Shown here: positions 1 to 11,549 of the stretch, piece after piece
How the letters are laid out: the number at the start of each line of letters is the position of its first letter
Position numbering within the stretch: the stretch's first letter is position 1
Notes under the pieces: generated by a model
Told to the model about the DNA's origin: nothing
The model's input: only the letters and a program-made list of their open reading frames with translations
Database searches by the model: none
Position numbers and translations under genes: made by a program
Source of the DNA: Deinococcales bacterium
Lineage (GTDB): Bacteria > Deinococcota > Deinococci > Deinococcales > JAAFIG01
Assembly (NCBI GenBank): GCA_043778225.1
Contig: JAYWGM010000107.1
Location: forward strand, 1 to 11,549
DNA length: 11,549 bases
Reading direction: 5' to 3'

Positions 1-58
1 CGGCAGCGCCCGAGAAAAACAGCAGGCTCGAGACTAGAAACAGCATAAGTTTTTTCAT
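1..58 (-). CDS. 5' end of an exported protein, running off the window edge (MKKLMLFLVSSLLFFSGAA...)
   Basis: ATG at 58-56 is preceded by GGGAG, just after the stop of 67..495. Manual translation gives a signal-peptide-like N-terminus resembling its neighbours. Confidence 0.75.
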   Translation of the reverse strand, partial: MKKLMLFLVSSLLFFSGAA

Positions 59-66
59 GGTTCTCC

Positions 67-495
67 CTAAAAGAATTTCTGAATGGCTTTACTGAGTTCA
101 AAGCCACGTTTATCAAGGTTGACACAGCGTAAACGGGCAGTCGTCACATCGCAAGTAAAACCGCCAGCTTTCCACGTTTTGCCATAAGCAAGGGTTTTAT
201 AATTAGGATTTTTGATCGTGTCACCATAACAACCGCGTTCGGCTCTGCCACGCTCACTCAAACCAAATCGGTAGCCATAATCAAGCTCGCAGTCTTTGGG
301 TGTGGCTGGGATTTTTGCCGTGATTTCACTCATTTCGCATTGCAACTCGGCGGTGTTATTGCGGGTATCGCGGAAAGCAATACAGTAAATGTTGTTGCTT
401 GGAGTTTTGAAGCTGCCAATGTCCTCAAAACCTTGGGCATACACCAAAGTCAGCAGTAAAAGGCTCGAACACACAACGAGAATCAATTTTTTCAT
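67..495 (-). CDS. Secreted Cys-rich protein, DUF6636-like
   Basis: Signal peptide ending VYA|Q and AAGGAG SD at 505-500. Pattern F.TPS.NI.C...C...C...CYGDT...L.YG..W..GGFTC...LRC.N...GF.LS with 6 Cys in the mature part. Family assigned from recalled pattern. Confidence 0.75.
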   Translation of the reverse strand: MKKLILVVCSSLLLLTLVYAQGFEDIGSFKTPSNNIYCIAFRDTRNNTAELQCEMSEITAKIPATPKDCELDYGYRFGLSERGRAERGCYGDTIKNPNYKTLAYGKTWKAGGFTCDVTTARLRCVNLDKRGFELSKAIQKFF

Positions 496-511
496 AAATC
501 TCCTTTAATCC

Positions 512-520
512 AGTCTAGCA
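512..520 (-). promoter_or_regulatory. Extended -10 element (TGcTAGACT) for 67..495
   Basis: TGn-TANNNT match lying just upstream of the SD. Confidence 0.45.
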
Positions 521-529
521 GGAAAGCTC

Positions 530-570
530 AATCCTCGAGACCATTTTGGGAGGAAACCGTCTCGAGGATT
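530..570. repeat. 12-bp perfect inverted repeat AATCCTCGAGAC / GTCTCGAGGATT with 17-nt spacer
   Basis: Arms 530-541 and 559-570 are exact reverse complements, each containing CTCGAG. Confidence 0.9.
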
Positions 571-598
571 AAAGATGCTTTTTTGGCATCTGCCAAAG

Positions 599-630
599 AT
601 TTTATTTGATTGCCGTGACAACAGCGTGAC
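599..630 (-). promoter_or_regulatory. Direct-repeat promoter A: GTCACGCTGTT-GTCACG-N9-TAAAAT
   Basis: 11-bp-period repeat, 9-nt gap, then a -10 hexamer. Identical geometry at 1191-1222 and 11147-11178. Confidence 0.7.
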
Positions 631-654
631 TCGAGTTTATAACTCGAGTCACGC
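624..654. repeat. 14-bp perfect inverted repeat GCGTGACTCGAGTT-tat-AACTCGAGTCACGC
   Basis: Arms 624-637 and 641-654 with a 3-nt loop. Confidence 0.9.
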
Positions 655-671
655 GATTTCTACTTCACTTC

Positions 672-702
672 AAAAAATTGAAACCTTGAGTAAAGGTGTT
701 TC
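672..702 (-). terminator. Possible weak intrinsic terminator after the Ig-like lipoprotein gene
   Basis: Minus strand reads GAAACACCTT-TACTC-AAGGTTTC then AATTTTTT. The stem is bulged and AT-rich. Confidence 0.3.
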
Positions 703-755
703 TATCTTGGGGGTAGGGTAACTGCTTGTGGCGCAATAGCACCCCTAAAGCTGGT

Positions 756-1109
756 TTACTGGGCTGCATTCGGGTTTGTGACTGTCAGCACCACGGCATT
801 GGAGATGGTTATCCCGACCGCACGAAACTGAGCCGTAATGCTACTCGAGCCAGCCGCCACACCCGTCACCACACCTGCGCTCGAGACTGTGGCTTTGGCA
901 GTGTCACTCGAGACAAAGGTGAAGGTCGGTTGGGTGCTTAAATTTGTGCCACTCGAGTCTTTAGCAACAGCACTGCAAGTTGTTGTGGCTGCCACGGCAA
1001 TGCTGTTTAGGGTACAAGTTAAAGCAATGCTCGAGATGGTCTGGGTTGGTGCTGGTGGGCAAGCAGTTAAAACGCCTGCTAATGCGAGAACTCCAATAAT
1101 TTTTTTCAT
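756..1109 (-). CDS. Lipoprotein with a single bacterial Ig-like (Big_2-type) domain
   Basis: Lipobox LTA|C and AAGGAG SD. Motif FVSSDTAKATVSSAGVVTGVAAGSSSITA is typical of Big_2 repeats. Confidence 0.85.
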   Translation of the reverse strand: MKKIIGVLALAGVLTACPPAPTQTISSIALTCTLNSIAVAATTTCSAVAKDSSGTNLSTQPTFTFVSSDTAKATVSSAGVVTGVAAGSSSITAQFRAVGITISNAVVLTVTNPNAAQ

Positions 1110-1190
1110 ATTGCTCCTTTGCTCGAGACTCCCCTCAAGACTTTGCTTTGGTCATCCCCGAGCCATTTGGGAGTTAATAACTCTACGCTT

Positions 1191-1222
1191 AGTTTAGGCT
1201 GTCAGCGTGACAAAAGCATGAC
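1191..1222 (-). promoter_or_regulatory. Direct-repeat promoter B: GTCATGCTTTT-GTCACG-N9-TAAACT
   Basis: Same geometry as A and C. Overlaps the last codons and stop of the adenine deaminase gene. Confidence 0.65.
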
Positions 1223-2960
1223 TTGAGACATCAACAAACTCTTGAGTCAACGTATTGACCAGTCCTTTATCGGTTAAGCGGTAAAAAGGCGCAACGGGTA
1301 GGGCTAAACTCGAGATAGACAGCATCGGCGATGCCCCACCAAGTCCGTGTTCTCGAGCCACTTGGTTAAAAGCCTTGACTTCGGCAGCAACTTCAAACAA
1401 ATGTTTATCAGACATCAGCCCGGCAATCGTCAGTGGCAGACTGGCTAAAACTTGACCATTTAAGACCAGAACTGCTCCGCCGTGCATAGCTTCTACGGCT
1501 TGTACTGCAATCAGCATATCCTCGGGGTTGCTGCCCACCACCATTAGGTTATGGCTGTCGTGGCTGATGGTCGTGGCAAGTGCGCCATGCCGTAAGCCCA
1601 AGCCACGCAGCAAACATAAACTGGGCGCGTGAGTCTGCCCGTGGCGTGGCACAACACTTAAAAGCAGTAAATCAGCAGGCAATGGAAACTCGAGTAAGCC
1701 AGCTTCAAAGCGCAGTTCTTGGTGAGCAAGCGTAGTGGTACGAATCGGGTCAATCTCGAGGATATGAACTTGGGCGAGTCCAGTCAAGCCAGTTTGTTTA
1801 GGAATAAAATCCGATGTGGTGATTTTGCCAATTTGTACCGTGTTTTGTTTTGGGGCTGGAACAACGGGCGGTAACTTGGCAGTGATCACTCCATCTCGAG
1901 CCACGATTTTTCCGTCGGCAATCACAATTTTGGGGCGAAGGTCGGTTAGATTCTCGAGCAGTACCATATCGGCAAGTTTGCCCGAAGCAATTGCGCCAAG
2001 GTCGGTCAGCCCAAAACGGGTGGCAGCGTTTAAGGTTGCAATTCGCACTGCTTTGGCTGAATCAATGCCATGCTCGAGTAAGACCCGTAAGCCCCTGTTG
2101 AGGTGTCCATGACGAAGCAAATCATCGGGGTCGGTGTCGTCGGTACACAGCGCGGCATTCCAGGCATGGGGCAGAATTTTCAGGGCTTGGGCAAGAAAAC
2201 CAACCGTATGGCGAAAAGTATTTTCTCGAGCATAGACCCACATTCCAGCCCGTAGTTTCTCGAGCATTTCGCTGGCACTGCGACATTCATGGTCGGAATA
2301 AACCCCAGCCGCCATATAGGCTGCCAAGTCGCGCCCAGACAAAAGCGGTGCATGACCCTCAAGGGCTTTACCCGAATCTAAGCCAGCTTCAACAATTGCC
2401 GAGGTGCGTGGACGCTGCCCAATCACACCGGGGTAATCCATCAGTTCTGCTACACCAAGCACCCGTGGCTGTTTGAGCATCTGGGCAATTTCTGGGGCTT
2501 CAAAGGTTGCTCCAGCACTCTCGAGTTCGGGTACAGCCGGCACACTCGAGGGGACAGTCAAAAAAACCCGCAAAGGCAGATTGGCACTGGCGGCAAGCAT
2601 ATAATCAAAGCCCTCGAGTCCAAGCACATTGCAGATTTCGTGGGGGTCAATTACCACACTGGTTGTACCAAAAGGCAGTACACCTCGAGCAAACTCGGCT
2701 GGTGTGACCAGACTCGATTCGATATGGACATGGGTGTCTATCAGTCCGGGGATGGCGGTCAGTCCATCTGCCTCGATAACTGTAGCAGCGCTTAGATTAA
2801 AGGCTGAATCATAATCTACAACCGCAATTCGATTGCCCAAAATACCAATATCTGCTTCTCGTATCTCGAGCGTAAAAACATTGACCACTTTTGCGCCACG
2901 AATCAGCAAATCCAGTGGCGCGTCCCCTCGAGCCGCCGCAATTAGGGCAGCCCGGCTCAT
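1194..2960 (-). CDS. ade: Adenine deaminase
   Basis: Motifs PGLIDTHVHIESS, DPHEI, AELMD, EGHAP, SDHE, CTDD and SHDSHN. 588 aa. ATGA overlap with the upstream gene. Confidence 0.93.
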   Translation of the reverse strand: MSRAALIAAARGDAPLDLLIRGAKVVNVFTLEIREADIGILGNRIAVVDYDSAFNLSAATVIEADGLTAIPGLIDTHVHIESSLVTPAEFARGVLPFGTTSVVIDPHEICNVLGLEGFDYMLAASANLPLRVFLTVPSSVPAVPELESAGATFEAPEIAQMLKQPRVLGVAELMDYPGVIGQRPRTSAIVEAGLDSGKALEGHAPLLSGRDLAAYMAAGVYSDHECRSASEMLEKLRAGMWVYARENTFRHTVGFLAQALKILPHAWNAALCTDDTDPDDLLRHGHLNRGLRVLLEHGIDSAKAVRIATLNAATRFGLTDLGAIASGKLADMVLLENLTDLRPKIVIADGKIVARDGVITAKLPPVVPAPKQNTVQIGKITTSDFIPKQTGLTGLAQVHILEIDPIRTTTLAHQELRFEAGLLEFPLPADLLLLSVVPRHGQTHAPSLCLLRGLGLRHGALATTISHDSHNLMVVGSNPEDMLIAVQAVEAMHGGAVLVLNGQVLASLPLTIAGLMSDKHLFEVAAEVKAFNQVAREHGLGGASPMLSISSLALPVAPFYRLTDKGLVNTLTQEFVDVSSHAFVTLTA

Positions 2961-3871
2961 GCGGTCAGTGCCTCAAGGATAAGTGCAATCACGGCTTGAC
3001 CATCGGCTTGGGTGGCAATCATGGCGTTAGGGCTGGCTTTGGCTGGCACACGAAATTCGCAGATACTCGCGCCAAGGCTGTGTGTGCCACTGGTTTCGAT
3101 TTGCACAAAAGCTGGCTCGAGCTTAAATAATTTTGGCTGCAACAAATAGGCAATCGTTACAGGGTCGTGCAAAGGCATGATGCGGTTTTGACGAATCGCT
3201 AAATAATGCGCCATCATGTCGGCGAGGGCGGCGGCATGGGTGGCTTGGCTGGTTCGGATTTGCGCCACGTGTTGGTCGGTCAGCAGCACTTGGCGCGTTA
3301 AGTTTAAGCCAAACATGGTTATTTTTGCACCACTGCCAAAAACAATGGCGGCGGCTTCGGGGTCGGCATAAAAATTAAATTCTGCCGCCGCAGTGTGGTT
3401 GCCGCTTGTACTCGAGCCACCCATTATCACAATTTCTTTCAGCAAACCAGCTAACCTTGGCTCAAGCCGCAGAGCAAGCGCAATGTTGGTCAGTGGGGCA
3501 ATGGCCACCAGTGTGATTTGATGAGGGTTGGCTAAAACCGTTTCAATCAGTTTGAGTACCGCATGACCGCTATCAGCTTGGCGCGTGGGCGGTGGCAGAC
3601 TCGAGCCGATTGTGCCAAATGCCCCAACCCCCAGCACATTTTCGGCAGTGCCAAGCGAGCGCAATAAGGCACGGTCGCAACCCGCATAGACTGGCGCGGT
3701 TATTCCGTAAGCATCCGCCACTGTCAAGGCATTGTGCAGGGTTCGCTCGAGTGGTGCATTGCCAGCCACCACGCCAATCCCCTCGAGTTGCAGGGTTTTG
3801 TGGCGTGCCGCCAACACAAGCGTGACCAGATCGTCAAAACCGGGGTCGGTATCAATCCAGATTTTAGGCAT
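2957..3871 (-). CDS. Nucleoside hydrolase (IU-NH/Rih family), start revised to ATG 3871
   Basis: Motifs IDTDPGFDD, VAGN, APLTNIA, IMGG, AEFNFYADPEAA and HDP. GAGG SD before ATG 3871, overlapping the ATPase stop. Confidence 0.92.
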   Translation of the reverse strand: MPKIWIDTDPGFDDLVTLVLAARHKTLQLEGIGVVAGNAPLERTLHNALTVADAYGITAPVYAGCDRALLRSLGTAENVLGVGAFGTIGSSLPPPTRQADSGHAVLKLIETVLANPHQITLVAIAPLTNIALALRLEPRLAGLLKEIVIMGGSSTSGNHTAAAEFNFYADPEAAAIVFGSGAKITMFGLNLTRQVLLTDQHVAQIRTSQATHAAALADMMAHYLAIRQNRIMPLHDPVTIAYLLQPKLFKLEPAFVQIETSGTHSLGASICEFRVPAKASPNAMIATQADGQAVIALILEALTA

Positions 3872-4925
3872 TTTTTTCCTCGAGCCAGACGGCTTTCTCG
3901 AGTGGTAAGCCAAAAGTGAGGTTTTGATTTTCTTGCCAAATGGCTTGGGCTGACTCAACCGAAGCCCGAATTAAACCCAGTTCGGTCTCGAGTTGATACT
4001 CGACCCGTTGCCCTTCAAAACTGCGGGTGATAACTCTGCCAGCCCATGTGTTGCCACCCAGCAGCACGCTTTCCGAGCGCCATGCGGCTCGATTAACTCC
4101 CGCTAAGACTTTCTGAGGTAGAACTTGCTCGAGTTTGCCGATTTTAAGACGGTTCTCGAGGATTTGGACAGGCAAGATATTGTCAAAGCCAACAAACCGA
4201 GCCGCAAAAACCGTGGCTGGAGCATTATAAATCACTTCTGGGGTAGCAAGTTGCTCGATTTTTCCGCCATTCATAATCGCCACGCGGTCAGCCAGCGCCA
4301 GTGCTTCGGCTTGGTCGTGGGTCACATAAAGCATTGTTACCCCAAGTTGCTTTTGCAGGCGGCGAATTTCGACCCGCATCTCGAGCCGTAACCGAGCATC
4401 AAGGTTCGAGAGTGGTTCATCGAGCAGCATTAATTGTGGGCGAATCACAAAGGCTCGAGCCAGTGCCACACGCTGCTGCTGTCCACCCGACAACTGAGCG
4501 GGTAAGCGCTGATGGAAATTGCCAAGGTCTACGGTTTTAAGCGCTTCGGTCACGCGGCGTTGCAGTTCTTGGCTTTCGATACGGCGAATCCGCAATCCAA
4601 AAGCCACGTTCTCGAAGACACTCAGGTGTGGAAAAAGCGCATAGCTCTGGAAAACCATTCCAATATCGCGCCGATTGGCTGGAAGTTTGGTGATGTCGGT
4701 CTGACCCAGTTGAATACTGCCAGCCTGCGGCTCGAGCAAACCCGCCACCGCTCGCATGGTCGTGGTTTTCCCGCAGCCACTTGATCCAAGCAGCGCCAGC
4801 AATTCACCGCTCTCAACACTTAAATTGAGTTTCTGGACTGCTATTTGGTCTCGAGCATAGGACAAAGTAAGATTGCTCAGTTGTAAAGCGGTTGGGTTCA
4901 CACGTACCTCGGTTGCAGGGTTCAC
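3864..4925 (-). CDS. ABC transporter ATP-binding subunit, PotA-like
   Basis: Walker A GSSGCGKTT, Q-loop VFQSYALFPH, signature LSGGQQQR, Walker B LLDEP, switch VTHDQ. Alternative in-frame GTG at 4901. Confidence 0.95.
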   Translation of the reverse strand: MNPATEVRVNPTALQLSNLTLSYARDQIAVQKLNLSVESGELLALLGSSGCGKTTTMRAVAGLLEPQAGSIQLGQTDITKLPANRRDIGMVFQSYALFPHLSVFENVAFGLRIRRIESQELQRRVTEALKTVDLGNFHQRLPAQLSGGQQQRVALARAFVIRPQLMLLDEPLSNLDARLRLEMRVEIRRLQKQLGVTMLYVTHDQAEALALADRVAIMNGGKIEQLATPEVIYNAPATVFAARFVGFDNILPVQILENRLKIGKLEQVLPQKVLAGVNRAAWRSESVLLGGNTWAGRVITRSFEGQRVEYQLETELGLIRASVESAQAIWQENQNLTFGLPLEKAVWLEEKNA

Positions 4926-4935
4926 ACGTACCTCG
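4894..4935. repeat. 18-bp direct repeat GGGTTCACACGTACCTCG x2, period 24
   Basis: Exact copies at 4894-4911 and 4918-4935. Confidence 0.9.
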
Positions 4936-5701
4936 AGAGTCCAAGCAGGCGCTCGGTCAGCAGCACAAAAAAGATCGAAAAAAGAATCACCAACATCGAA
5001 AGCGCTGCAATACTTGGGTCATAACTCGATTCCATATGCAGCAACATCCGAATTGGCAAGGTCGTGATGCCTGGTCCGGTCAAAAACAACGAAACTGGCA
5101 CATGATTAAACGAATTGATAAACGCCAGCACGGTGGCTGCTGCCACGCCGCCACGCACATTGGGCAAGACCACGCGCCAAAAAATCTGCATTCGGGTTGC
5201 GCCAAGGCTAAAAGCCGCATCTTCGATGTCTCGAGGCAGATTAGCAAGGCTCGCACCAACCACCCGCACCGCGTAGGGCAGCACCAAGGCGCTGTGTCCA
5301 AGCAGCAGTGCCAGATTGACCGAGCCATCGCGGATAAGCACAAATTGGCGCAAGAGCGCCACCCCAATCACCAAGCCGGGGATAATCAAGGGGCTGGTCA
5401 GGGCGGTGCGAATCCATTCGGTTTCTGGCAGACGGTAGCGCTGCAAGGCATAGGCGGCTGGCACACCAAGCAGCAGTGCAATGATGGTTGCGCCAATGCC
5501 CAGCCATAAACTGGTGACCAGACTCGAGGCAAAAACTTCGGTTTGTAAAACACTGGTTATCCAACGGAATGAATAGGCTTGAGGTGGAAAAATTAGGCTG
5601 TTGTCGTCCGAAAAAGCCGTCATAAAGACAATCGTAAACGGGGCAATCAAGAAAAATAAAACGACAAATAAAATCGTATTGTTGAATCGGGAAGGTCTCA
5701 T
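4922..5701 (-). CDS. ABC transporter permease, PotC-like
   Basis: Multiple hydrophobic segments and EAA loop IEDAAFSLGA...FWRVVLP. ATGA and GTGA overlaps with neighbours. Confidence 0.93.
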   Translation of the reverse strand: MRPSRFNNTILFVVLFFLIAPFTIVFMTAFSDDNSLIFPPQAYSFRWITSVLQTEVFASSLVTSLWLGIGATIIALLLGVPAAYALQRYRLPETEWIRTALTSPLIIPGLVIGVALLRQFVLIRDGSVNLALLLGHSALVLPYAVRVVGASLANLPRDIEDAAFSLGATRMQIFWRVVLPNVRGGVAAATVLAFINSFNHVPVSLFLTGPGITTLPIRMLLHMESSYDPSIAALSMLVILFSIFFVLLTERLLGLSRYV

Positions 5702-6525
5702 GTTGTCCTCGAGCTTCGGCTGCGTAAAATCGCATTGACCAGCAGTGTGGTTAATAGCATCACCACCGAAATTACCGTCGTGGCAGCTTCATCCACTGTC
5801 ACACTGGCTTTTTGATAGAGCAGCGTTGCCAGCATTGTGACACGAGGACCACCCAAAAGGGCTGGTGTGACATAAGCCGTGATACAGCCCGTAAAAACCA
5901 GTGTGCCACCAATTGCTAAGCCATCTCGAGTCAGCGGCAGAATAACCCGCCAAAAAGTCTGCCATTCGTTCGCGCCAAGGCTTTTGGCGGCGGCTTGTAC
6001 ATCCTTGGGTAAGTTCTCGAGCGCACTGGTTAAAGAAAGCAGCATTAACGGCAGCATCAATTGCAATAAGCCAATAAAAACCGCACTTTCGGTGTATAAA
6101 ATCGGGATAGACTCGCTTAGAACCCCACTGCCAACCAAGGTTTTATTCAGTAAGCCTTCGCGCCCAAGCACCACCAGCCAAGCAAACGAACGTGCCACTG
6201 GCGAAATCATTAGCGGCAGAATAATCAAACCAGTCAGTAAACCACGGTACTGACCACCAAGCCGCATAATGGCTAAAGCAGCCGGATAACTGACCGCCGC
6301 ACTCAGTAGCGTCACCAATAAGGCGATTCTGACCGTGCGCCAATAGACCTCGAGATTGATTTCATCGCTCAAAAAAGTGCTGTAGTTACCTAGACCAACG
6401 CCCTGCCCAACCTTAAAACTCTCGAGCAGAAATGTGCCAACCGGATACAAAAAACAAATCACCAAGAAAGTCACGGCGGGCAGCAGCAACCACCAAGCTC
6501 GAGACCGATTTGCACTGATGTTCAT
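5698..6525 (-). CDS. ABC transporter permease, PotB-like, start revised to ATG 6525
   Basis: EAA-like loop QAAAKSLGA...FWRVILP and YVTPALLGG. GAGGT SD 6 nt before ATG 6525. The longer ORF start lies within repeat and hairpin DNA. Confidence 0.9.
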   Translation of the reverse strand: MNISANRSRAWWLLLPAVTFLVICFLYPVGTFLLESFKVGQGVGLGNYSTFLSDEINLEVYWRTVRIALLVTLLSAAVSYPAALAIMRLGGQYRGLLTGLIILPLMISPVARSFAWLVVLGREGLLNKTLVGSGVLSESIPILYTESAVFIGLLQLMLPLMLLSLTSALENLPKDVQAAAKSLGANEWQTFWRVILPLTRDGLAIGGTLVFTGCITAYVTPALLGGPRVTMLATLLYQKASVTVDEAATTVISVVMLLTTLLVNAILRSRSSRTT

Positions 6526-6546
6526 GGGCGACCTCGCAAATAACGA

Positions 6547-6573
6547 TGGGGCGATTGAAAGCCAATCGCCCCA
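6547..6573. other. Intercistronic stem-loop TGGGGCGATTG-aaagc-CAATCGCCCCA
   Basis: Perfect 11-bp stem between the SBP and first permease genes, with no adjacent U-tract. Confidence 0.8.
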
Positions 6574-6591
6574 GTTGAGCGCATCAAAACT

Positions 6592-6662
6592 AACGGGCAA
6601 TTTCTTGATGCCGAATATCAACGGGCAATTTCTTGATGCCGAATATCAACGGGCGATTTCTT
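6592..6662. repeat. 28-bp tandem repeat AACGGGCAATTTCTTGATGCCGAATATC, about 2.5 copies
   Basis: Exact copies at 6592-6619 and 6620-6647. A partial third copy at 6648-6662 has one mismatch and lies inside the SBP 3' end. Confidence 0.92.
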
Positions 6663-7677
6663 TGTTCCAACGGGTAATCCACTCGTCACGTACACCCAAT
6701 AAGTAGCCAGCATCCAAAAAGCGCATATTGGCAAACTCGGCAAGGGTGGTCAATTGAGCCGCTTTGGCAGGTTTGATTTGGATGGTTTTATTGACCGGTG
6801 AATCCACAAGGTCGTTGGCTTGCGCCGTTTGTACCCCTTTGGAAATCATAAAGTTAATAAACTGATGCGCCAAATCTTCATTCTTTGTGCCTTTGATGAT
6901 CGAGGCGGTGTTCATTAGACCGACTTGACCCTCGCGCAAACGCGCCCAAGCCAGTGGTTTACCGGTATTGAGCATTGTCCCCCACGCAAAACGACCGATT
7001 GGCGCAGCCCAGATTTCGTCTTGGGCAAATAACGAAGCCACCTGTGAGGATTGATTGTAAAAAGTCAAAACATTGGCTTTGAGGGCTGCCAATTGCTTAA
7101 AGCCGGGGTCAACATTGGTGTCTGTACCGCCGTAAGCACGGTTGGTGGCAAAAACCACGGGCGGTCCTTGGGTGGTGGTGATGTTTGGCAGCGCCACCCG
7201 ACCTTTGAGTTCTGGTCGCCATAAATCTTTCCAAGAAGTGATAGGCACACTGATTTTGTCGGTGCGGTAAGCAATGCTAATCGAGTAGGCGGTAAACGCC
7301 ACGCCATAATTATTGCCGAGCGGATTCTTGGCAAAGTCATAAATCTGAACAGCGTTGCTGATTTTTTTCATCTCGAGTGGCTCGAGTAAATCTTGTTTGA
7401 TGGCTGAACGGGCAAAATAATCGCCTAAAAGCGCCACATCTATGTTGGGGTTATCTTTGCGGGCAATCAGTTTGGCGAGGCGGTCGGCGTTGTTGCCAAC
7501 CTCATGCACCACTTTGCAACCACAGATGGCTTCAAACGGACGGGTGATGTTTTTATCTATCAAAGGCTGATTTAACCCAAAGCTCGAGATTGTCAAAGTG
7601 CGGGTTTGTCCTAATGCCAAAGAGACCAGTGCGCCCAGCGATACAGCGCCAGCCAGAACAACAACGGATTTTTTCAT
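6646..7677 (-). CDS. ABC transporter substrate-binding protein, PotD/PotF-like
   Basis: Signal peptide, motifs ITSWKDLWRPELKGRVALP and NEDLAHQFINF. GAGGAG SD. First gene of the operon. Confidence 0.9.
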   Translation of the reverse strand: MKKSVVVLAGAVSLGALVSLALGQTRTLTISSFGLNQPLIDKNITRPFEAICGCKVVHEVGNNADRLAKLIARKDNPNIDVALLGDYFARSAIKQDLLEPLEMKKISNAVQIYDFAKNPLGNNYGVAFTAYSISIAYRTDKISVPITSWKDLWRPELKGRVALPNITTTQGPPVVFATNRAYGGTDTNVDPGFKQLAALKANVLTFYNQSSQVASLFAQDEIWAAPIGRFAWGTMLNTGKPLAWARLREGQVGLMNTASIIKGTKNEDLAHQFINFMISKGVQTAQANDLVDSPVNKTIQIKPAKAAQLTTLAEFANMRFLDAGYLLGVRDEWITRWNKEIAR

Positions 7678-7715
7678 GATTTACTCCTCTTGTATGCCAC
7701 CCAACATCGCCATGA

Positions 7716-7745
7716 ACTATAACCACCTTCAACAGCTTGCGTCAA
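7716..7745 (-). promoter_or_regulatory. Sigma70-type promoter of the ABC/purine operon: TTGACG-N18-TATAGT
   Basis: Both hexamers match consensus at 5/6 positions, about 40 nt upstream of ATG 7677. Confidence 0.6.
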
Positions 7746-7847
7746 TAAAACCCTAACACATCTGGTGGATAGATGATTGTGAAAAACCGAGTGGTAGCCA
7801 TGACAAAAAAAGGATAGGCTGCTCGAGGTTTGGCTCAGGAGAAAGCA

Positions 7848-9137
7848 ATGAAATCTAAAAATGCTAAAATTCAAGTTGTTTTTCGCCCAATGCACTGGAT
7901 TATTGGCTTTGGTTTTTTGTTTGGGGTGGCACTGTCTACCCAAGTAGCCCAAAGCACGCTCTGGACAGCTAAAGAATTGCAGGTTATCCGTTCTTTGTGG
8001 GTCAATAATTTAGCCCCAGTACCTCGAGATTCTTCCAATAAATTTGAAGCCATTCCAGAAGTTGCAGAATTTGGCAAATTGCTTTTTATGGAAAAAAAGC
8101 TCAGTGGTAACGATGATGTTTCGTGTGCCAGTTGTCACAACCCAGAAACAAAATTTAGCGACCATCAAGACCTTTCCGAAGGTATGGGTTTGGCAGCGCG
8201 GCACACCCCCAATATCGTGGCATCCGCCTACAGCCCCTATCAGTTTTGGGATGGACGAGCCGATTCGTTGTGGTCTCAAGCCCTTGGACCACTTGAGAAT
8301 CCCATGGAACACGGTATTGACCGCACCCAACTGATGCGTACTGTCCAAGCCTTGTATGCAGCCAATTACGAAAAATTATTCGGTAGTACCCCCGATTTTA
8401 ACGATGCTGAGCGTTTTCCAACTCATGCCAGTCCACTGGGTGATGAAACCGCCCAGCAGAATTGGCGCAGTATGAATCCAGACAGCCGAAATGCAGTCAA
8501 TCGGGCTTTTAGTAACGTTGGTAAAGCCTTAGCAGCCTATGTCCGCACCCTCTCGCCTAAAGTCACCCGCTTTGACCAGTATGTGGCAGCCTTGAGTCAG
8601 GAAAACGTAGAAATTGCGTTTAACCCCGATGAAACGGCTGGCTTAAAGCTCTTTATCGGTAAAGCCAACTGTATTATTTGTCATAGCGGCGCACTTTTTA
8701 CCGACCAGCAGTTCCACAATACTGGTTTGCCCGTCGAAAGCAACACCACTCCAGATTTGGGTCGTTTTGAAGGCTTAAAACAGCTTATCAGCAGCGAATT
8801 TAATTGTCGCTCGGTCTACAGCGATGCCCCCAGCGATGAATGTTTGGCGCTCTCTAAAGCCGAACTTGATATGCTCGAGTCTGATGCTACCGCCACCGCA
8901 GGGAATAAAAATGCTGGTGCGTTCAAAACCCCAAGTTTACGCAATGTTGCCGAGACCATGCCCCTGATGCACACTGGGCAGTTTAAGAATTTAAGACGGG
9001 TTCTCGAGCATTACAACAAAGCCCCCAAAAGTAAATGGGGGACTACGGAGTTAAAACCATTGGATTTAAGCCAACAAGAAATTTTTCAACTCGAGCAATT
9101 TTTAGAAACCCTGACCGATGCCGACACGATTCGCTGA
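7848..9137 (+). CDS. Di-heme cytochrome c peroxidase / MauG-family protein, start revised to ATG 7848
   Basis: Two CxxCH motifs (CASCH, CIICH), QFWDGRA, FTDQQFHNTG, GAFKTPSLRNV and PLMHTG. N-terminal signal/anchor. AGGAG SD. Confidence 0.92.
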   Translation: MKSKNAKIQVVFRPMHWIIGFGFLFGVALSTQVAQSTLWTAKELQVIRSLWVNNLAPVPRDSSNKFEAIPEVAEFGKLLFMEKKLSGNDDVSCASCHNPETKFSDHQDLSEGMGLAARHTPNIVASAYSPYQFWDGRADSLWSQALGPLENPMEHGIDRTQLMRTVQALYAANYEKLFGSTPDFNDAERFPTHASPLGDETAQQNWRSMNPDSRNAVNRAFSNVGKALAAYVRTLSPKVTRFDQYVAALSQENVEIAFNPDETAGLKLFIGKANCIICHSGALFTDQQFHNTGLPVESNTTPDLGRFEGLKQLISSEFNCRSVYSDAPSDECLALSKAELDMLESDATATAGNKNAGAFKTPSLRNVAETMPLMHTGQFKNLRRVLEHYNKAPKSKWGTTELKPLDLSQQEIFQLEQFLETLTDADTIR

Positions 9138-9141
9138 CAAC

Positions 9142-9708
9142 TTATTTAGCGAGTTCAAACACAAAGCCAGTGCCGTTGAATTTGTAGTAGCCAAGCACCA
9201 CATCCGAATCCGAGAATTCGCCGCTCTGAATCGTGATGGTCGTGCCAAGACGCGGAAATTTAAGATAATACGACATCTGTTCGGTTGTGTATTTTTCGCC
9301 AGTTTTTCGGTTATACACCGCCAGAATTTTCTGCTCGAGGGCTGGGCTTAGGCTTGGGTTGTCGGCAGCCGGAAAGACCATCCCGGGCAGCATTTTTTGG
9401 GTCACATCCACAAATTTTGTACCGCGTGGTTCGACAAACTTAACCCTCGAGATAAAACAGCCCGGTCCACAGCCATAGCTCGAGTCGCCGATTAAATCTA
9501 TGCCGTTTTTTCTGCGCCAGATGGCAAATTCACCGCCGCCTTCCCAGCCGCCCGAATACGCAATGTAATCGTTTTTCAGGTCGGCAGCATACTCAGAAAC
9601 ATTGATTTTATTGCCAACCACTTTCCAATAATCCAGCACAGTTTTTTTACTTTGGGCAGCCACCAAGCTCGAGACCAGCAGCACCGCCAGTACCATTATT
9701 TTTTTCAT
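9142..9708 (-). CDS. Secreted hypothetical protein, paralog of 10550..11140, start revised to ATG 9708
   Basis: MKK signal peptide ending VAA|Q. ATGA overlap with the upstream stop at 9705-9707. Confidence 0.8.
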   Translation of the reverse strand: MKKIMVLAVLLVSSLVAAQSKKTVLDYWKVVGNKINVSEYAADLKNDYIAYSGGWEGGGEFAIWRRKNGIDLIGDSSYGCGPGCFISRVKFVEPRGTKFVDVTQKMLPGMVFPAADNPSLSPALEQKILAVYNRKTGEKYTTEQMSYYLKFPRLGTTITIQSGEFSDSDVVLGYYKFNGTGFVFELAK

Positions 9709-10550
9709 ACCCCACAACCCCAGTCAAGCATTCTCGAGAAACCTTTGCCGTTCCAAGTGTAAATCGTTACGCCATAGCCTTCGTGTACAAGGTCATCCAC
9801 AAAAACTTCCATCTTCCCATCGCCGTTTATATCGGCAATCGCGCTGATGAACTGGGTCATGACTTGAGGTTGCCCAGAAGTGCCATCAAAAACCTTGGTT
9901 ACGATTCGTTCGCCAAGCGTAAAAGTCTGGACTTTTCCAGCCACGACTTTACGTACCAGCACCAATGAATACTCGCCTTTTTCTTGTCCGTATGAGCCAT
10001 TTAAGCGATTCTGAGCATCAAAACTCAAGCGCGGATTTTGTGCCACCAACAGCACTTCGTTGCTTTTGTCGTTGTCGAGGTCGGTTTGAATGATTTGCGA
10101 AAGCATGACTGGTTGGCTGATTTTACGTTTTTTTAGCTCGTCGGTCATGACTTTTTGATAGGCTACATTGGTGTTTGGAATAGCGGTTATGGCTCGAGGC
10201 ACTGGATTCCACGCGGCGGCTAAAGCATAGGTTGGTAAATACGGTAATTTGACAGGTGTACTGATGCTCGTAACCCGAACCCAATCGCAAAAGCCAGTCT
10301 CAATTTTACCGCCAGACATGGCTTTGCCGATTGCGCCAGTGTTATTGAGCAGCACTGTTTGTAAACCATTTTTAATTGCGTTCTGGCTACCAAGCGAAAG
10401 TTTTTCGCCAACCGCCCATGTGTTGCCCTCGAGCGCCCCGACGATGGCGGTTTCTTCTAAGTCCAAGCGAAACAGCACCGCTTTAGGTGTGCTTTGTGCC
10501 AGTGCCACAAGGCTCGAGCCGAGAAGTATTGCAACAATTATTTTTTTCAT
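9705..10550 (-). CDS. Secreted protein with two FG-GAP/VCBS-like DxD/NxD Ca-binding loops
   Basis: Signal peptide ending ALA|Q, loops DLDNDKSNEVL and DINGDGKMEVF. TGATG coupling at 10552-10548 (alternative ATG at 10556). Confidence 0.8.
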   Translation of the reverse strand: MKKIIVAILLGSSLVALAQSTPKAVLFRLDLEETAIVGALEGNTWAVGEKLSLGSQNAIKNGLQTVLLNNTGAIGKAMSGGKIETGFCDWVRVTSISTPVKLPYLPTYALAAAWNPVPRAITAIPNTNVAYQKVMTDELKKRKISQPVMLSQIIQTDLDNDKSNEVLLVAQNPRLSFDAQNRLNGSYGQEKGEYSLVLVRKVVAGKVQTFTLGERIVTKVFDGTSGQPQVMTQFISAIADINGDGKMEVFVDDLVHEGYGVTIYTWNGKGFSRMLDWGCGV

Positions 10551-11140
10551 CAGCATTTTCCTTTACCCAATACAAAGATATTGGTTTTATTATTCCAATC
10601 TAAGCTGTACTCGAGATTTTCACTACCTTTCACCAGAATACTTGTACCACGTTGCGGAATTTTATAACGTGCTTCATTAAAACTTATTTTACATTTGCTA
10701 AAGGTATTTTTTAAGGCAGTCATTGGCAGTATTTTATTGGTTACATCCCTAAATTTTTGACCATCAGTGGTACTTGAGAACACCAGACTACTGGCAAAAA
10801 AATCTGTGGAATATCCGTACTGAGCGCCAATAAAAACAGTTTTAGAACTCACTGAACGCCAGACTGCTAAGGCATAAACATTGAGGTCGCCACTGCCTGG
10901 TTCGCATCCACCGAACACCAGACTGAGGTAATCGTTTTGAAGGTTCTTATTGACGGTTGCACAACCACGTTGTAGCTTCTCCGAAATTTTCGGGTTGCCA
11001 ATCCAAGTTTTGAGTTCTGGATTTTCCACCAGCCGCAAATCGTTCGGCATGGCAAGTACATAATCAGCCACGGTTAAGCGGCTTTGGGCAACACCAAAAC
11101 TCGAGACCAGAACACCAAATAGTAAAAACGCTTTTTTCAT
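10550..11140 (-). CDS. Secreted hypothetical protein, probably leaderless first gene of a 3-gene operon
   Basis: MKK signal peptide ending GVA|Q. No SD, with TAAAAT 6 nt before the ATG. Confidence 0.8.
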   Translation of the reverse strand: MKKAFLLFGVLVSSFGVAQSRLTVADYVLAMPNDLRLVENPELKTWIGNPKISEKLQRGCATVNKNLQNDYLSLVFGGCEPGSGDLNVYALAVWRSVSSKTVFIGAQYGYSTDFFASSLVFSSTTDGQKFRDVTNKILPMTALKNTFSKCKISFNEARYKIPQRGTSILVKGSENLEYSLDWNNKTNIFVLGKGKC

Positions 11141-11146
11141 GCTGCT

Positions 11147-11178
11147 ATTTTACCAACCCAGCGTGACTCGAGCGTGAC
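11147..11178 (-). promoter_or_regulatory. Direct-repeat promoter C: GTCACGCTCGA-GTCACG-N9-TAAAAT-N6-ATG
   Basis: Same geometry as A and B. The -10 position would place the transcription start at the ATG. Confidence 0.75.
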
Positions 11179-11186
11179 ATGAGGAT

Positions 11187-11472
11187 TCACGACTTGCGGT
11201 ATGGTTTTAATCTGCCCAAGTTGCGTTTAGAGTACACTTGGTCTCGAGTATCAATCAGCACAACGGTGATAAGCAGACCAATAATACTGAACACCACGCG
11301 AAAAGGTGGGACTTTCAGACACATTAAATAATAGCCCTGCATTTGTTCAACACTACCTGTTCCTATTTGTGCCATACAGGCAAGATTGATTCTAAGGTGT
11401 TCACTCTCAGCTTGGTTAAGTTCGGACAAATCATCAATGGCTTTATCAGTAATACCGAATTAACTTAATCAC
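11187..11472 (-). pseudogene. RelE/StbE-like toxin with an apparent frameshift near the 5' end
   Basis: The open frame from 11459 reads FGITDKAIDDLSEL...GSVEQMQG...LKVPPFRVVFSI...ITVVLIDTRDQVY, matching the RelE layout. The plausible GTG at 11472 is one base out of frame, and an in-frame TAA lies at 11462-11460. Confidence 0.6.
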
Positions 11473-11483
11473 TCTCGTTTGCC

Positions 11484-11504
11484 AAAAAACGGCAAACTGC
11501 CGTT
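11484..11504 (-). terminator. Intrinsic terminator AACGGCA-GTT-TGCCGTTTTTT
   Basis: 7-bp stem (11488-11494 / 11498-11504) whose 3' arm runs into T6 on the minus strand. Confidence 0.6.
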
Positions 11505-11549
11505 CTCGCGTTAAATTCGGTATCGTTAATACTCCCGTTGGTCGGGTAA

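Follow-up and report, generated by a model that had tools for sequence, protein, structure and literature searches.

For three decades highly iterated palindromes have remained unexplained. In the literature searched, their description is confined to cyanobacteria, where the word HIP1 (GCGATCGC) recurs throughout the genome. Here we report on the hexamer CTCGAG, which attracted attention in an 11,549-nt stretch of DNA from a Deinococcales bacterium (the window, by which the whole of that stretch is meant). We show that this word behaves as a highly iterated palindrome in an uncultured family of Deinococcales, with about one copy per 160 bp.

Both words are short GC-containing palindromes that are hyper-abundant genome-wide, HIP1 being over-represented 15 to 300-fold (PMC5861425, in excerpt) and CTCGAG 27-fold. 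Both occur inside and between genes, belong to no longer repeat, are found lineage-wide and share sites between genomes above background, and in neither case is the inner core (CGATCG and TCGA, respectively) over-represented outside the full word. They differ in length (8 and 6 bp), in phylum and in density, which for HIP1 is about 1 per kb in the excerpted text of PMC4390886 and for CTCGAG about 6.2 per kb. Furthermore, HIP1 has DmtA and DmtC, according to an excerpt of PMC13756078, whereas no conserved cognate methyltransferase was found for CTCGAG. A periodicity of 10-90 kb has also been described for HIP1 (same excerpt of PMC5861425). The alternate HIPs of single cyanobacterial strains (GGCGCC, GCCGGC and GCsGC; PMC4390886, in excerpt) are, like CTCGAG, short palindromes, of five or six letters; they replace HIP1 in those strains and show that the phenomenon can outlast a change of word. 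However, as described in that excerpt, they are sporadic, confined to single strains and each accompanied by a matching methyltransferase, whereas CTCGAG is fixed in a family of at least five genera, is graded over the order and was not found to have a matching methyltransferase conserved with it.

The same hexamer is the target of XhoI/PaeR7I. Restriction systems drive the avoidance of their sites, whereas CTCGAG is enriched, and none of the 19 family genomes gave a match to the XhoI endonuclease family (PF04555). Repeats of the repetitive extragenic palindrome (REP) or miniature inverted-repeat transposable element (MITE) type have conserved sequence beyond their core, while CTCGAG lacks such flanks. 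Uptake sequences, for their part, such as the uptake signal sequence (USS) of Pasteurellaceae and the DNA uptake sequence (DUS) of Neisseriaceae, are over-represented genome-wide, are found inside genes in every reading frame, where they affect the peptide sequence, are common to related species and scarce in recent imports, are thought to accumulate by transmission bias and are often paired, in inverted orientation, in terminators. CTCGAG departs from them in being a 6-bp palindrome present at 6.2 copies per kb, with only a small rise in density after stop codons (7.4-7.6 versus about 6.2 per kb). We know of no uptake specificity in Deinococcota.

No paper describing hyper-abundance of CTCGAG in Deinococcota was found in a search that left subscription journals and supplements outside, and the word is absent from the main text of PMC4390886. 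A second, denser case in an unrelated phylum makes the phenomenon more general and, since no conserved methyltransferase was found with it, bears on methylation-based models. New in this work are an equal-opportunity neighbour test with a hairpin control, a measure of the force based on synonymous choice, negative searches for a methyltransferase and an endonuclease with a closed genome as anchor, a caveat on site sharing, and a graded map of the trait with a Leu-Glu dose-response.

Abundance of CTCGAG in the window and in the genome

The window is the entire contig C107 of a 107-contig metagenome-assembled genome (MAG) of 4.03 Mb (this genome, G000), with 48.7% G+C. An earlier note on this DNA, made from the letters of the window, had counted about 69 copies of CTCGAG and about 21 TCGA tetramers elsewhere, which placed roughly three quarters of TCGA in the one word. 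The number of copies is exactly 69, the first at 27-32 and the last at 11243-11248, whereas dinucleotide-preserving shuffles gave a mean of 1.22 and a maximum of 5, and none of 200 reached 69. TCGA occurs 92 times, 23 of them outside CTCGAG (75% inside), and the reversed word GAGCTC has no copy in the window. According to the assigned open reading frames (ORFs), 27 sites read CTC GAG, 12 and 21 fall in the other two codon phases, and 9 are intergenic or unassigned.

Genome-wide, CTCGAG has 24,877 copies, about 6.2 per kb and 26.7 times the zero-order expectation. It is the top hexamer by a factor of 3; the runner-up palindrome has 2,854 copies and GAGCTC 24. Of 36,442 TCGA tetramers, 68% lie in CTCGAG, and the 11,565 outside it are not over-represented. 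The maximum-order Markov ratio of the word, 1.16, is uninformative because the flanking pentamers themselves consist of the word. The HIP1 core CGATCG is present in this genome in 182 copies, at an observed/expected ratio (o/e) of 0.20, and HIP1 is not abundant.

All 107 contigs carry the word, at 3.99-10.6 per kb (median, 6.27), so the excess is not a peculiarity of the contig on which it was noticed. At positions -10 to -1 and +1 to +10 around the word, base frequencies range from 0.17 to 0.31; the strongest preference is for G at -1 (0.31, versus 0.18 for C), mirrored by a mild preference for C after the word. The flanks are thus not conserved, as the earlier note had observed, and the repeated unit is the bare hexamer and not a longer mobile repeat. 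Among the flank pairs, the one that yields the eight-letter palindrome CCTCGAGG is strongly avoided (1.0%, versus 4.5-8.9% for the others).

Many other palindromes are rare in this genome. The o/e is 0.10 or less for 35 of the 64 hexamer palindromes (e.g., GGCGCC with 3 copies and GACGTC, AGGCCT and GGGCCC with 1 each), which points to heavy restriction pressure in the past, and this unusually broad avoidance suggests a long history of many restriction systems.

Local deviations in the density of the word were also found. The three sparsest 5-kb windows, C44:60000-65000, C41:55000-60000 and C93:10000-15000, have 3, 6 and 7 sites, respectively, against a mean of 31, and are probably imported DNA. 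The word flags imported DNA in these genomes, and it also biases analyses of them that rely on composition or on restriction sites. Among the 68 tRNA genes detected with Aragorn, 6 contain CTCGAG, compared with 32.6 expected at genome density; 4 of these 6 belong to one cluster (C19:9937-12769).

Coding-aware nulls and codon usage

For these analyses 3,531 genes were called by a greedy longest-ORF rule (90% coding). The density of CTCGAG was 6.18 per kb in coding and 6.11 per kb in non-coding DNA, and the composition-corrected o/e was 26.2 and 32.0, respectively. The sites in the three codon phases numbered 13,221, 4,514 and 4,667. Synonymous shuffling within genes rendered 1,664, 384 and 324 (10 replicates), so that the observed numbers exceeded this null 9.4-fold overall and 8 to 14-fold by phase, and permutation of codon order rendered 647, 227 and 178 (10 replicates).

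Away from the word, CTC accounts for 9.5% of Leu codons and GAG for 20.5% of Glu codons. Both are thus minor codons elsewhere, and CTCGAG runs against the codon preference of the genome. Leu-Glu pairs were spelt CTCGAG in 69% of cases, versus 1.95% expected (odds ratio, 113; log odds, 4.7). This spelling test stands in for a strict dicodon-preserving shuffle, which is uninformative for phase 0 because CTCGAG is itself one dicodon. Since the word opposes codon preference, the pressure is cleanly measurable from synonymous choices, and the force so estimated amounts to a log odds of about 5 per isolated site and about 3.4 beside a neighbour.

The excess is therefore not codon usage in this genome, in agreement with the earlier note, which had seen the word in coding and intergenic DNA and in all three phases and had thought codon usage alone an unlikely cause. 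More generally, base composition, a mobile repeat and codon usage do not explain the word, and the force behind it was shown to act equally in genes and spacers.

Spacing and neighbour dependence

The mean gap between sites is 160.6 bp with a coefficient of variation of 0.998, i.e., near-exponential. Over gene starts and stops the profile is flat at about 6 per kb, apart from a dip in the first 20 bp (4.5 per kb), a small rise before stops (8.6 per kb) and the rise after stops mentioned above. Short gaps are under-represented: 4.0% measure 20 bp or less, versus 11.7% expected. Tandem copies (gap of 6) were not found at all, because the junction would form GAGCTC.

To keep opportunity constant, we measured the share of Leu-Glu pairs spelt CTCGAG as a function of the distance to the nearest other site. 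This share was 0.37 at 7-12 bp, 0.50 at 13-18 bp, 0.60 at 19-24 bp, 0.66 at 25-30 bp, 0.68-0.72 at 31-60 bp and 0.75-0.79 at 61-300 bp (isolated pairs, 0.78); in islands where the nearest site was beyond 500 bp, it was 0.25. A within-gene permutation null was nearly flat (0.58-0.72). The trend persisted when only neighbours of other phases or outside genes were counted (from 0.44 to 0.73), and phase-1 contexts showed the same trend (from 0.30 to 0.73).

Avoidance of hairpins or short repeats was considered as the whole cause of the close-pair deficit and rejected. Thus, GC-matched inverted 6-mers were reduced to 0.60-0.68 of baseline at distances of up to 12 bp but had returned to 0.94-1.0 by 13 bp and beyond, and direct repeats were enriched, whereas pairs of CTCGAG stood at 0.52 of baseline at 13-18 bp, at about 0.79 at 19-40 bp and at 0.87-0.90 at 41-60 bp; hairpin avoidance accounts only for distances up to 12 bp. 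A neighbour within about 60 bp therefore lowers the pressure for a site. No such dependence is expected from a site-autonomous mutation bias, and the length scale of the dependence is something that any mechanism must explain.

One mechanism that bears on this scale is the binding of CTCGAG by an abundant protein of the nucleoid or of chromosome architecture, whose dispersed sites would organise or compact the chromosome. The reach of the interference, about 60 bp, is comparable to a protein footprint, the density is uniform whatever the coding status or the position in a gene, and a role in nucleoid structure has been argued for HIP1 (Xu, Lawrence and Durand, PMC5861425, in excerpt). Still, a candidate protein is lacking, six base pairs are few for specific binding, and up to 400 bp no periodicity was detected besides the 3-bp coding period, so we regard this role as rather doubtful.

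Distribution of the trait among relatives

The word is equally dense in all of the 18 other genomes of the family, with 12,028-35,442 copies (4.3-6.8 per kb), while GAGCTC has 0-568. These genomes represent 5 genera and are 57-94% complete, and one of them is a single 5.1-Mb contig. In public records, the closest matches to the adenine deaminase of the window come from MAGs titled Deinococcota or Deinococcales, and five such loci contain 5.75-7.59 CTCGAG per kb; in contrast, 75 control loci of other phyla (1.26 Mb) contain 0.154 per kb, the largest o/e being 4.1. No 16S rRNA gene was present in the assembly; a ddrB gene was, which fits the placement in Deinococcales.

These data bear on the reading of the excess as an artefact of assembly, binning or library, or as the trace of a dispersed mobile repeat that carries the word. 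It is true that the genome is a MAG in 107 contigs and that contig ends are repeats. However, every contig carries the word without flank conservation, and the same density recurs in the 18 other family genomes, the single-contig one included, and in five differently titled public MAG records, but not in the loci of other phyla. An origin of this kind, of which the earlier note had named the library or assembly artefact as a refutation, is thus scarcely credible.

A wider sample took in another 150 genomes of the phylum, every one of them from the same order and 96-100% complete. Across the order the trait is graded, from about 0.01 to 6.8 CTCGAG per kb. It is absent from genus g7 (77 genomes; 26-1,010 copies, near the control word) and from genus g9 (27 genomes; ratio of CTCGAG to the reversed control of about 1). 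Genera g13, g14 and g15 have 3,336-12,522 copies (up to 3.4 per kb), and g6 and g27 have 6,990-10,639. In a sample of one high-GC relative (G114), 50 of 55 coding sites were in phase 0; the moderate signal of the high-GC relatives is partly codon-driven. Since a single order includes genomes without the trait and genomes with its extreme form, it is feasible to search for the gene responsible by phylogenetic comparison. In a 60-kb sample of a small high-GC genome (G022, genus g9), the 59 copies of CTCGAG made up 97% of all TCGA, the tetramer being nearly eliminated otherwise.

Viral contigs were also scanned. Among the matches listed (at least 125 stretches, mostly high-GC), many had 2-7 CTCGAG per kb alongside GAGCTC. 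Three of the records listed had CTCGAG and zero GAGCTC: G169 (318 copies in 110 kb), G170 (107 in 36.9 kb) and G171 (40 in 15.7 kb). G170 is a real tailed phage, and its major head protein matched none of 201 Deinococcales genomes; nothing follows from the viral records for the Deinococcales family, and they were discarded as evidence. G169, which has direct terminal repeats, begins with a 15-bp tandem repeat (within 1-190) with one CTCGAG per unit; 8 units are in register at 8-118, and more lie beyond.

It could be argued from some of these relatives that no factor reads the word, which would then arise as a by-product, be it of codon usage, of dipeptide content or of a neutral mutation bias that depends on context. 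In g9 the word is about as frequent as its reversed control, the sites of G114 are almost all in phase 0, and the high-GC viral contigs listed carry CTCGAG and GAGCTC together. For the genome studied here this is contradicted, and a by-product is very improbable: the word uses minor codons, exceeds the synonymous shuffle in every phase and composition in non-coding DNA, depends on its neighbours and is accompanied by only 24 copies of GAGCTC.

Site turnover between species

Nine genes of the window were codon-aligned with those of same-genus genomes at 70-75% nucleotide identity. The sites in common with G003, G004, G005 and G007 were 28 of 45, 27 of 45, 24 of 40 and 13 of 24, respectively (54-62%), compared with a background of 23%, 22%, 23% and 17% for any identical hexamer window; the first three genomes are about 90% identical to each other and thus not independent. 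The totals were balanced, with 45 sites here versus 47 in G003. Among the roughly equidistant genomes G000, G003 and G007, 43 positions were occupied: 7 of them in all three genomes and 18 in two, with another 18 confined to a single genome. An amino acid difference accompanied 28 of the 36 variable positions. Sites thus turn over between orthologs, in which the earlier note had proposed to measure gain and loss, and we conclude that a persistent force acts in every sampled lineage.

Leu-Glu pairs kept in both G000 and G003 (n = 21) were spelt with the word in both genomes in 15 cases, in only one in 3 and 2 cases, and in neither in 1. This pattern is that of independent high occupancy, and sharing does not prove the preservation of single sites.

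Effects on proteins

Leu-Glu is the most over-represented dipeptide of the proteome (o/e of 2.32), while the o/e of Glu-Leu is 0.97. In a dose series made up of this genome and small samples (23-60 kb) of seven relatives, the o/e of Leu-Glu climbed with the density of the word: 0.97 at 0.05 CTCGAG per kb, 1.11 at 0.98, 1.40 at 1.5, 1.43 at 2.5, 1.60 at 3.1, 1.68 at 3.2, 2.12 at 4.5 and 2.32 at 6.2 (this genome). Glu-Leu showed no trend (0.58-1.24). The word was thus shown to have raised the Leu-Glu content of the proteome.

The adenine deaminase gene of the window has 15 sites, whereas five Chloroflexota orthologs (61-63% identity) have 0-3. Its out-of-frame sites lie mostly over conserved residues and are reached by synonymous choice, while at in-frame sites Ile, Val, Gly, Cys or Ala has often been changed to Leu. 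The rewriting of proteins is real in bulk and mild per site.

Search for a methyltransferase, an endonuclease or Vsr

The earlier note had suggested looking for a methyltransferase of PaeR7I/TaqI type that has Vsr or repair genes beside it. Profile searches covered PF00145, PF01555, PF02384, PF07669 and PF02086 in this genome, which is 89% complete and has many methyltransferase genes. The only ordinary-sized Eco57I plus TaqI_C methyltransferase (650 amino acids [aa]), on contig C65, is a defence-island gene found in 2 of the 18 other family genomes and was rejected as a general cause. The island (C65:8000-19662) also encodes a reverse transcriptase, DUF4276 with an AAA_21 ATPase, HicB, a YhcG PD-(D/E)XK nuclease and a PIN protein, and the methyltransferase gene overlaps a 264-aa ORF without a family match. 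Likewise, a D12-class adenine methyltransferase (380 aa) near dprA on C89 was present in only 1 of the 18 (G007; 86% identity) and was discarded as the cause. The gene order in that region (C89:18000-28000) is ddrB, shikimate kinase, dprA, a 277-aa ORF without a family match, and the D12-class gene, which the 277-aa ORF overlaps by 4 bp. The density of sites within a gene could not be used to separate resident from imported methyltransferases either, even low-GC defence genes having about 5 per kb.

In the closed family genome G013 (23,515 sites), PF01555 gave no match and PF00145 a single one, and in G010 (21,883 sites; 91% complete) PF00145 gave none. Eighteen methyltransferase-like loci were compared, 7 from G013, 5 from G010 and 6 from G006. 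For those of G013 and G010, identity to any sequence of this genome did not exceed 33%, while the flanking housekeeping genes reached 73-79%, so within the five Pfam classes, whose specificity is not readable from sequence, no methyltransferase ortholog is common to this genome and G013 or G010. G006 shares three methyltransferases with this genome (80%, 61% and 41% identity).

In one relative outside the family, G021, the genes for an XhoI-family endonuclease (312 aa) and an N6_N4 methyltransferase (340 aa) converge (G021:C1:73699-77256), and the two are a probable CTCGAG-specific restriction-modification system; the methyltransferase has no close homolog in this genome. In general, none of the candidate methyltransferases tracks the word.

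These results bear on a methylation-linked repair ratchet (Elhai's HIP model), in which a methyltransferase would mark the word or its TCGA core and methyl-directed mismatch-repair nicking would preferentially fix word-creating mutations, until no base was out of reach of repair from a site. Restriction-modification systems classically have this word as a target, and saturation of this kind predicts a dependence on neighbours, which was seen. TCGA outside the word is not over-represented, in parallel to CGATCG outside HIP1 in the excerpted text of PMC4390886. Moreover, CTCGAG and TCGA are, in an excerpt of 10.64898/2026.06.24.734251, reported among the methylated motifs common to a hot-spring genome group and its phages. 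Against the ratchet, no methyltransferase ortholog common to the family was found in the five Pfam classes, the tested candidates being sporadic, and no Vsr was found in this genome at 89% completeness. One-off variants of the word are not depleted (transitions have an o/e of 1.14-1.42 at every position, transversions 0.13-0.99). The literal G-methyl-C version needs a flanking G, because CTCGAG holds no GC dinucleotide, and that G is only mildly preferred (0.31). Finally, the density is 6 times the value of about 1 per kb that the model derives. The methylation idea thus appears weakened by these sequence comparisons, and the ratchet rather unlikely. The HIP1-like reading in the earlier note is supported by the genome-wide occurrence in all phases, the lack of a longer repeat and the presence in relatives, and a process acting on the word itself must create or maintain it; the link to a methyltransferase and Vsr found no support in these tests.

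Possible roles of the word

The best reading of these results is that the word is maintained by a persistent force acting on CTCGAG itself, be it selection or biased transmission, and we infer that it is the recognition site of a sequence-specific DNA-handling factor. By analogy with described systems, we tentatively propose that CTCGAG may be an orientation-free tag of self or kin in recombinational DNA transactions, a possibility short of a probable one. The tag would be used in the uptake or processing of kin DNA during natural transformation, in recombinational repair, or in both. Segments bearing a copy would be transmitted or repaired slightly better, and copies would accumulate until neighbours became redundant and protein constraints pushed back. 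ComEC and DprA are encoded in this genome and each in 17 of the 18 other family genomes. For HIP1, enhanced transformation has been reported and a Chi-like role suggested (preprint 10.1101/2024.09.10.611283, in excerpt), and a role in DNA-uptake recognition has been proposed (PMC13756078, in excerpt). A more specific form of the idea, somewhat unlikely as it stands, is that a system conserved in the family reads CTCGAG without a cognate methyltransferase, the word being an orientation-free counterpart of Chi or of an uptake sequence that marks kin DNA for recombination or repair. If this were true, the graded order, which includes 96-100% complete genera at 2-3.4 CTCGAG per kb, would offer a route to HIP function.

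Several observations weigh against a force on the word that operates through such a reader. No reader protein has been identified. ComEC and DprA are also present in 12 of 12 relatives outside the family, and competence genes equally present without the trait do not discriminate. Known uptake sequences measure 9-12 bp, are not palindromes and have densities near 1 per kb, and with a word of 6 bp kin DNA can be told apart only in quantitative terms. The near-exponential spacing holds nothing that points to selection for even coverage. As for site sharing, the use of the word at the retained Leu-Glu pairs was not significantly associated between G000 and G003 (odds ratio, 2.5; P = 0.49), so that sharing was rejected as proof of purifying selection on single sites, and repeated re-creation accounts for it as well as retention does. 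In adenine deaminase, residues under the word were 65.4% conserved versus 61.7% for the others (one gene, compared with word-free orthologs).

Organization of the window

The genes of the window and the positions of all its sites are given in Table 1. No DNA-modifying enzyme is encoded among these genes, as the earlier note had stated.

Table 1. Genes and CTCGAG sites of the window
Feature	Position	Strand	CTCGAG sites and remarks
All 69 CTCGAG sites (starts)	27, 534, 561, 630, 643, 844, 880, 907, 952, 1030, 1122, 1309, 1352, 1689, 1755, 1895, 1953, 2073, 2225, 2259, 2520, 2545, 2613, 2684, 2865, 2927, 3116, 3411, 3600, 3746, 3782, 3879, 3897, 3987, 4128, 4155, 4380, 4454, 4731, 4850, 4932, 5230, 5523, 5708, 5925, 6016, 6349, 6421, 6498, 7372, 7381, 7583, 7822, 8023, 8874, 9003, 9090, 9334, 9446, 9479, 9668, 9733, 10193, 10428, 10513, 10610, 11100, 11167, 11243		Exact match
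Four sites outside ORF assignments (534, 561, 630, 643)	534..648	.	By ORF assignment
Other unassigned or intergenic sites	27, 1122, 7822, 11167, 11243	.	By ORF assignment
Adenine deaminase gene	1194..2960	-	15 (8.5 per kb)
Inosine-uridine nucleoside hydrolase gene	2957..3958	-	7
ABC transporter ATPase gene	3864..4925	-	7; several lineage-specific, with amino acid differences (e.g., LE versus IE, HE)
Two ABC permease genes	4922..6621	-	3 and 6
Solute-binding protein gene	6646..7677	-	3; one (alignment position 300) is LE here and LD in two relatives
Tightest pair of sites in the window	7372..7386	.	Starts 9 bp apart; such pairs under-represented genome-wide
Di-haem cytochrome c peroxidase gene	7830..9137	+	4
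Three ORFs (191, 283 and 196 aa)	9142..11140	-	4, 4 and 2

Both ends of the contig are repeats (11447-11549 and 1-99), and a dispersed short repeat at contig ends breaks the assembly. The last approximately 100 bp of the window have at least 12 other copies in the genome, at 93-100% identity (on C70, C75, C94, C67, C80, C21, C61, C99, C52, C2 and C29), and are also matched in relatives at 79-92% identity, while the first 99 bp equal C42:1-99 reversed.

Outside the family, the nearest relatives of the adenine deaminase are in Chloroflexota and Roseiflexaceae MAGs, at 61-63% identity, and the remaining hits, from other phyla (Bacillota, Planctomycetota, Enterobacterales and others), reach 37-47%, which hints at a transfer of the gene between the Deinococcales family and the Chloroflexota group.

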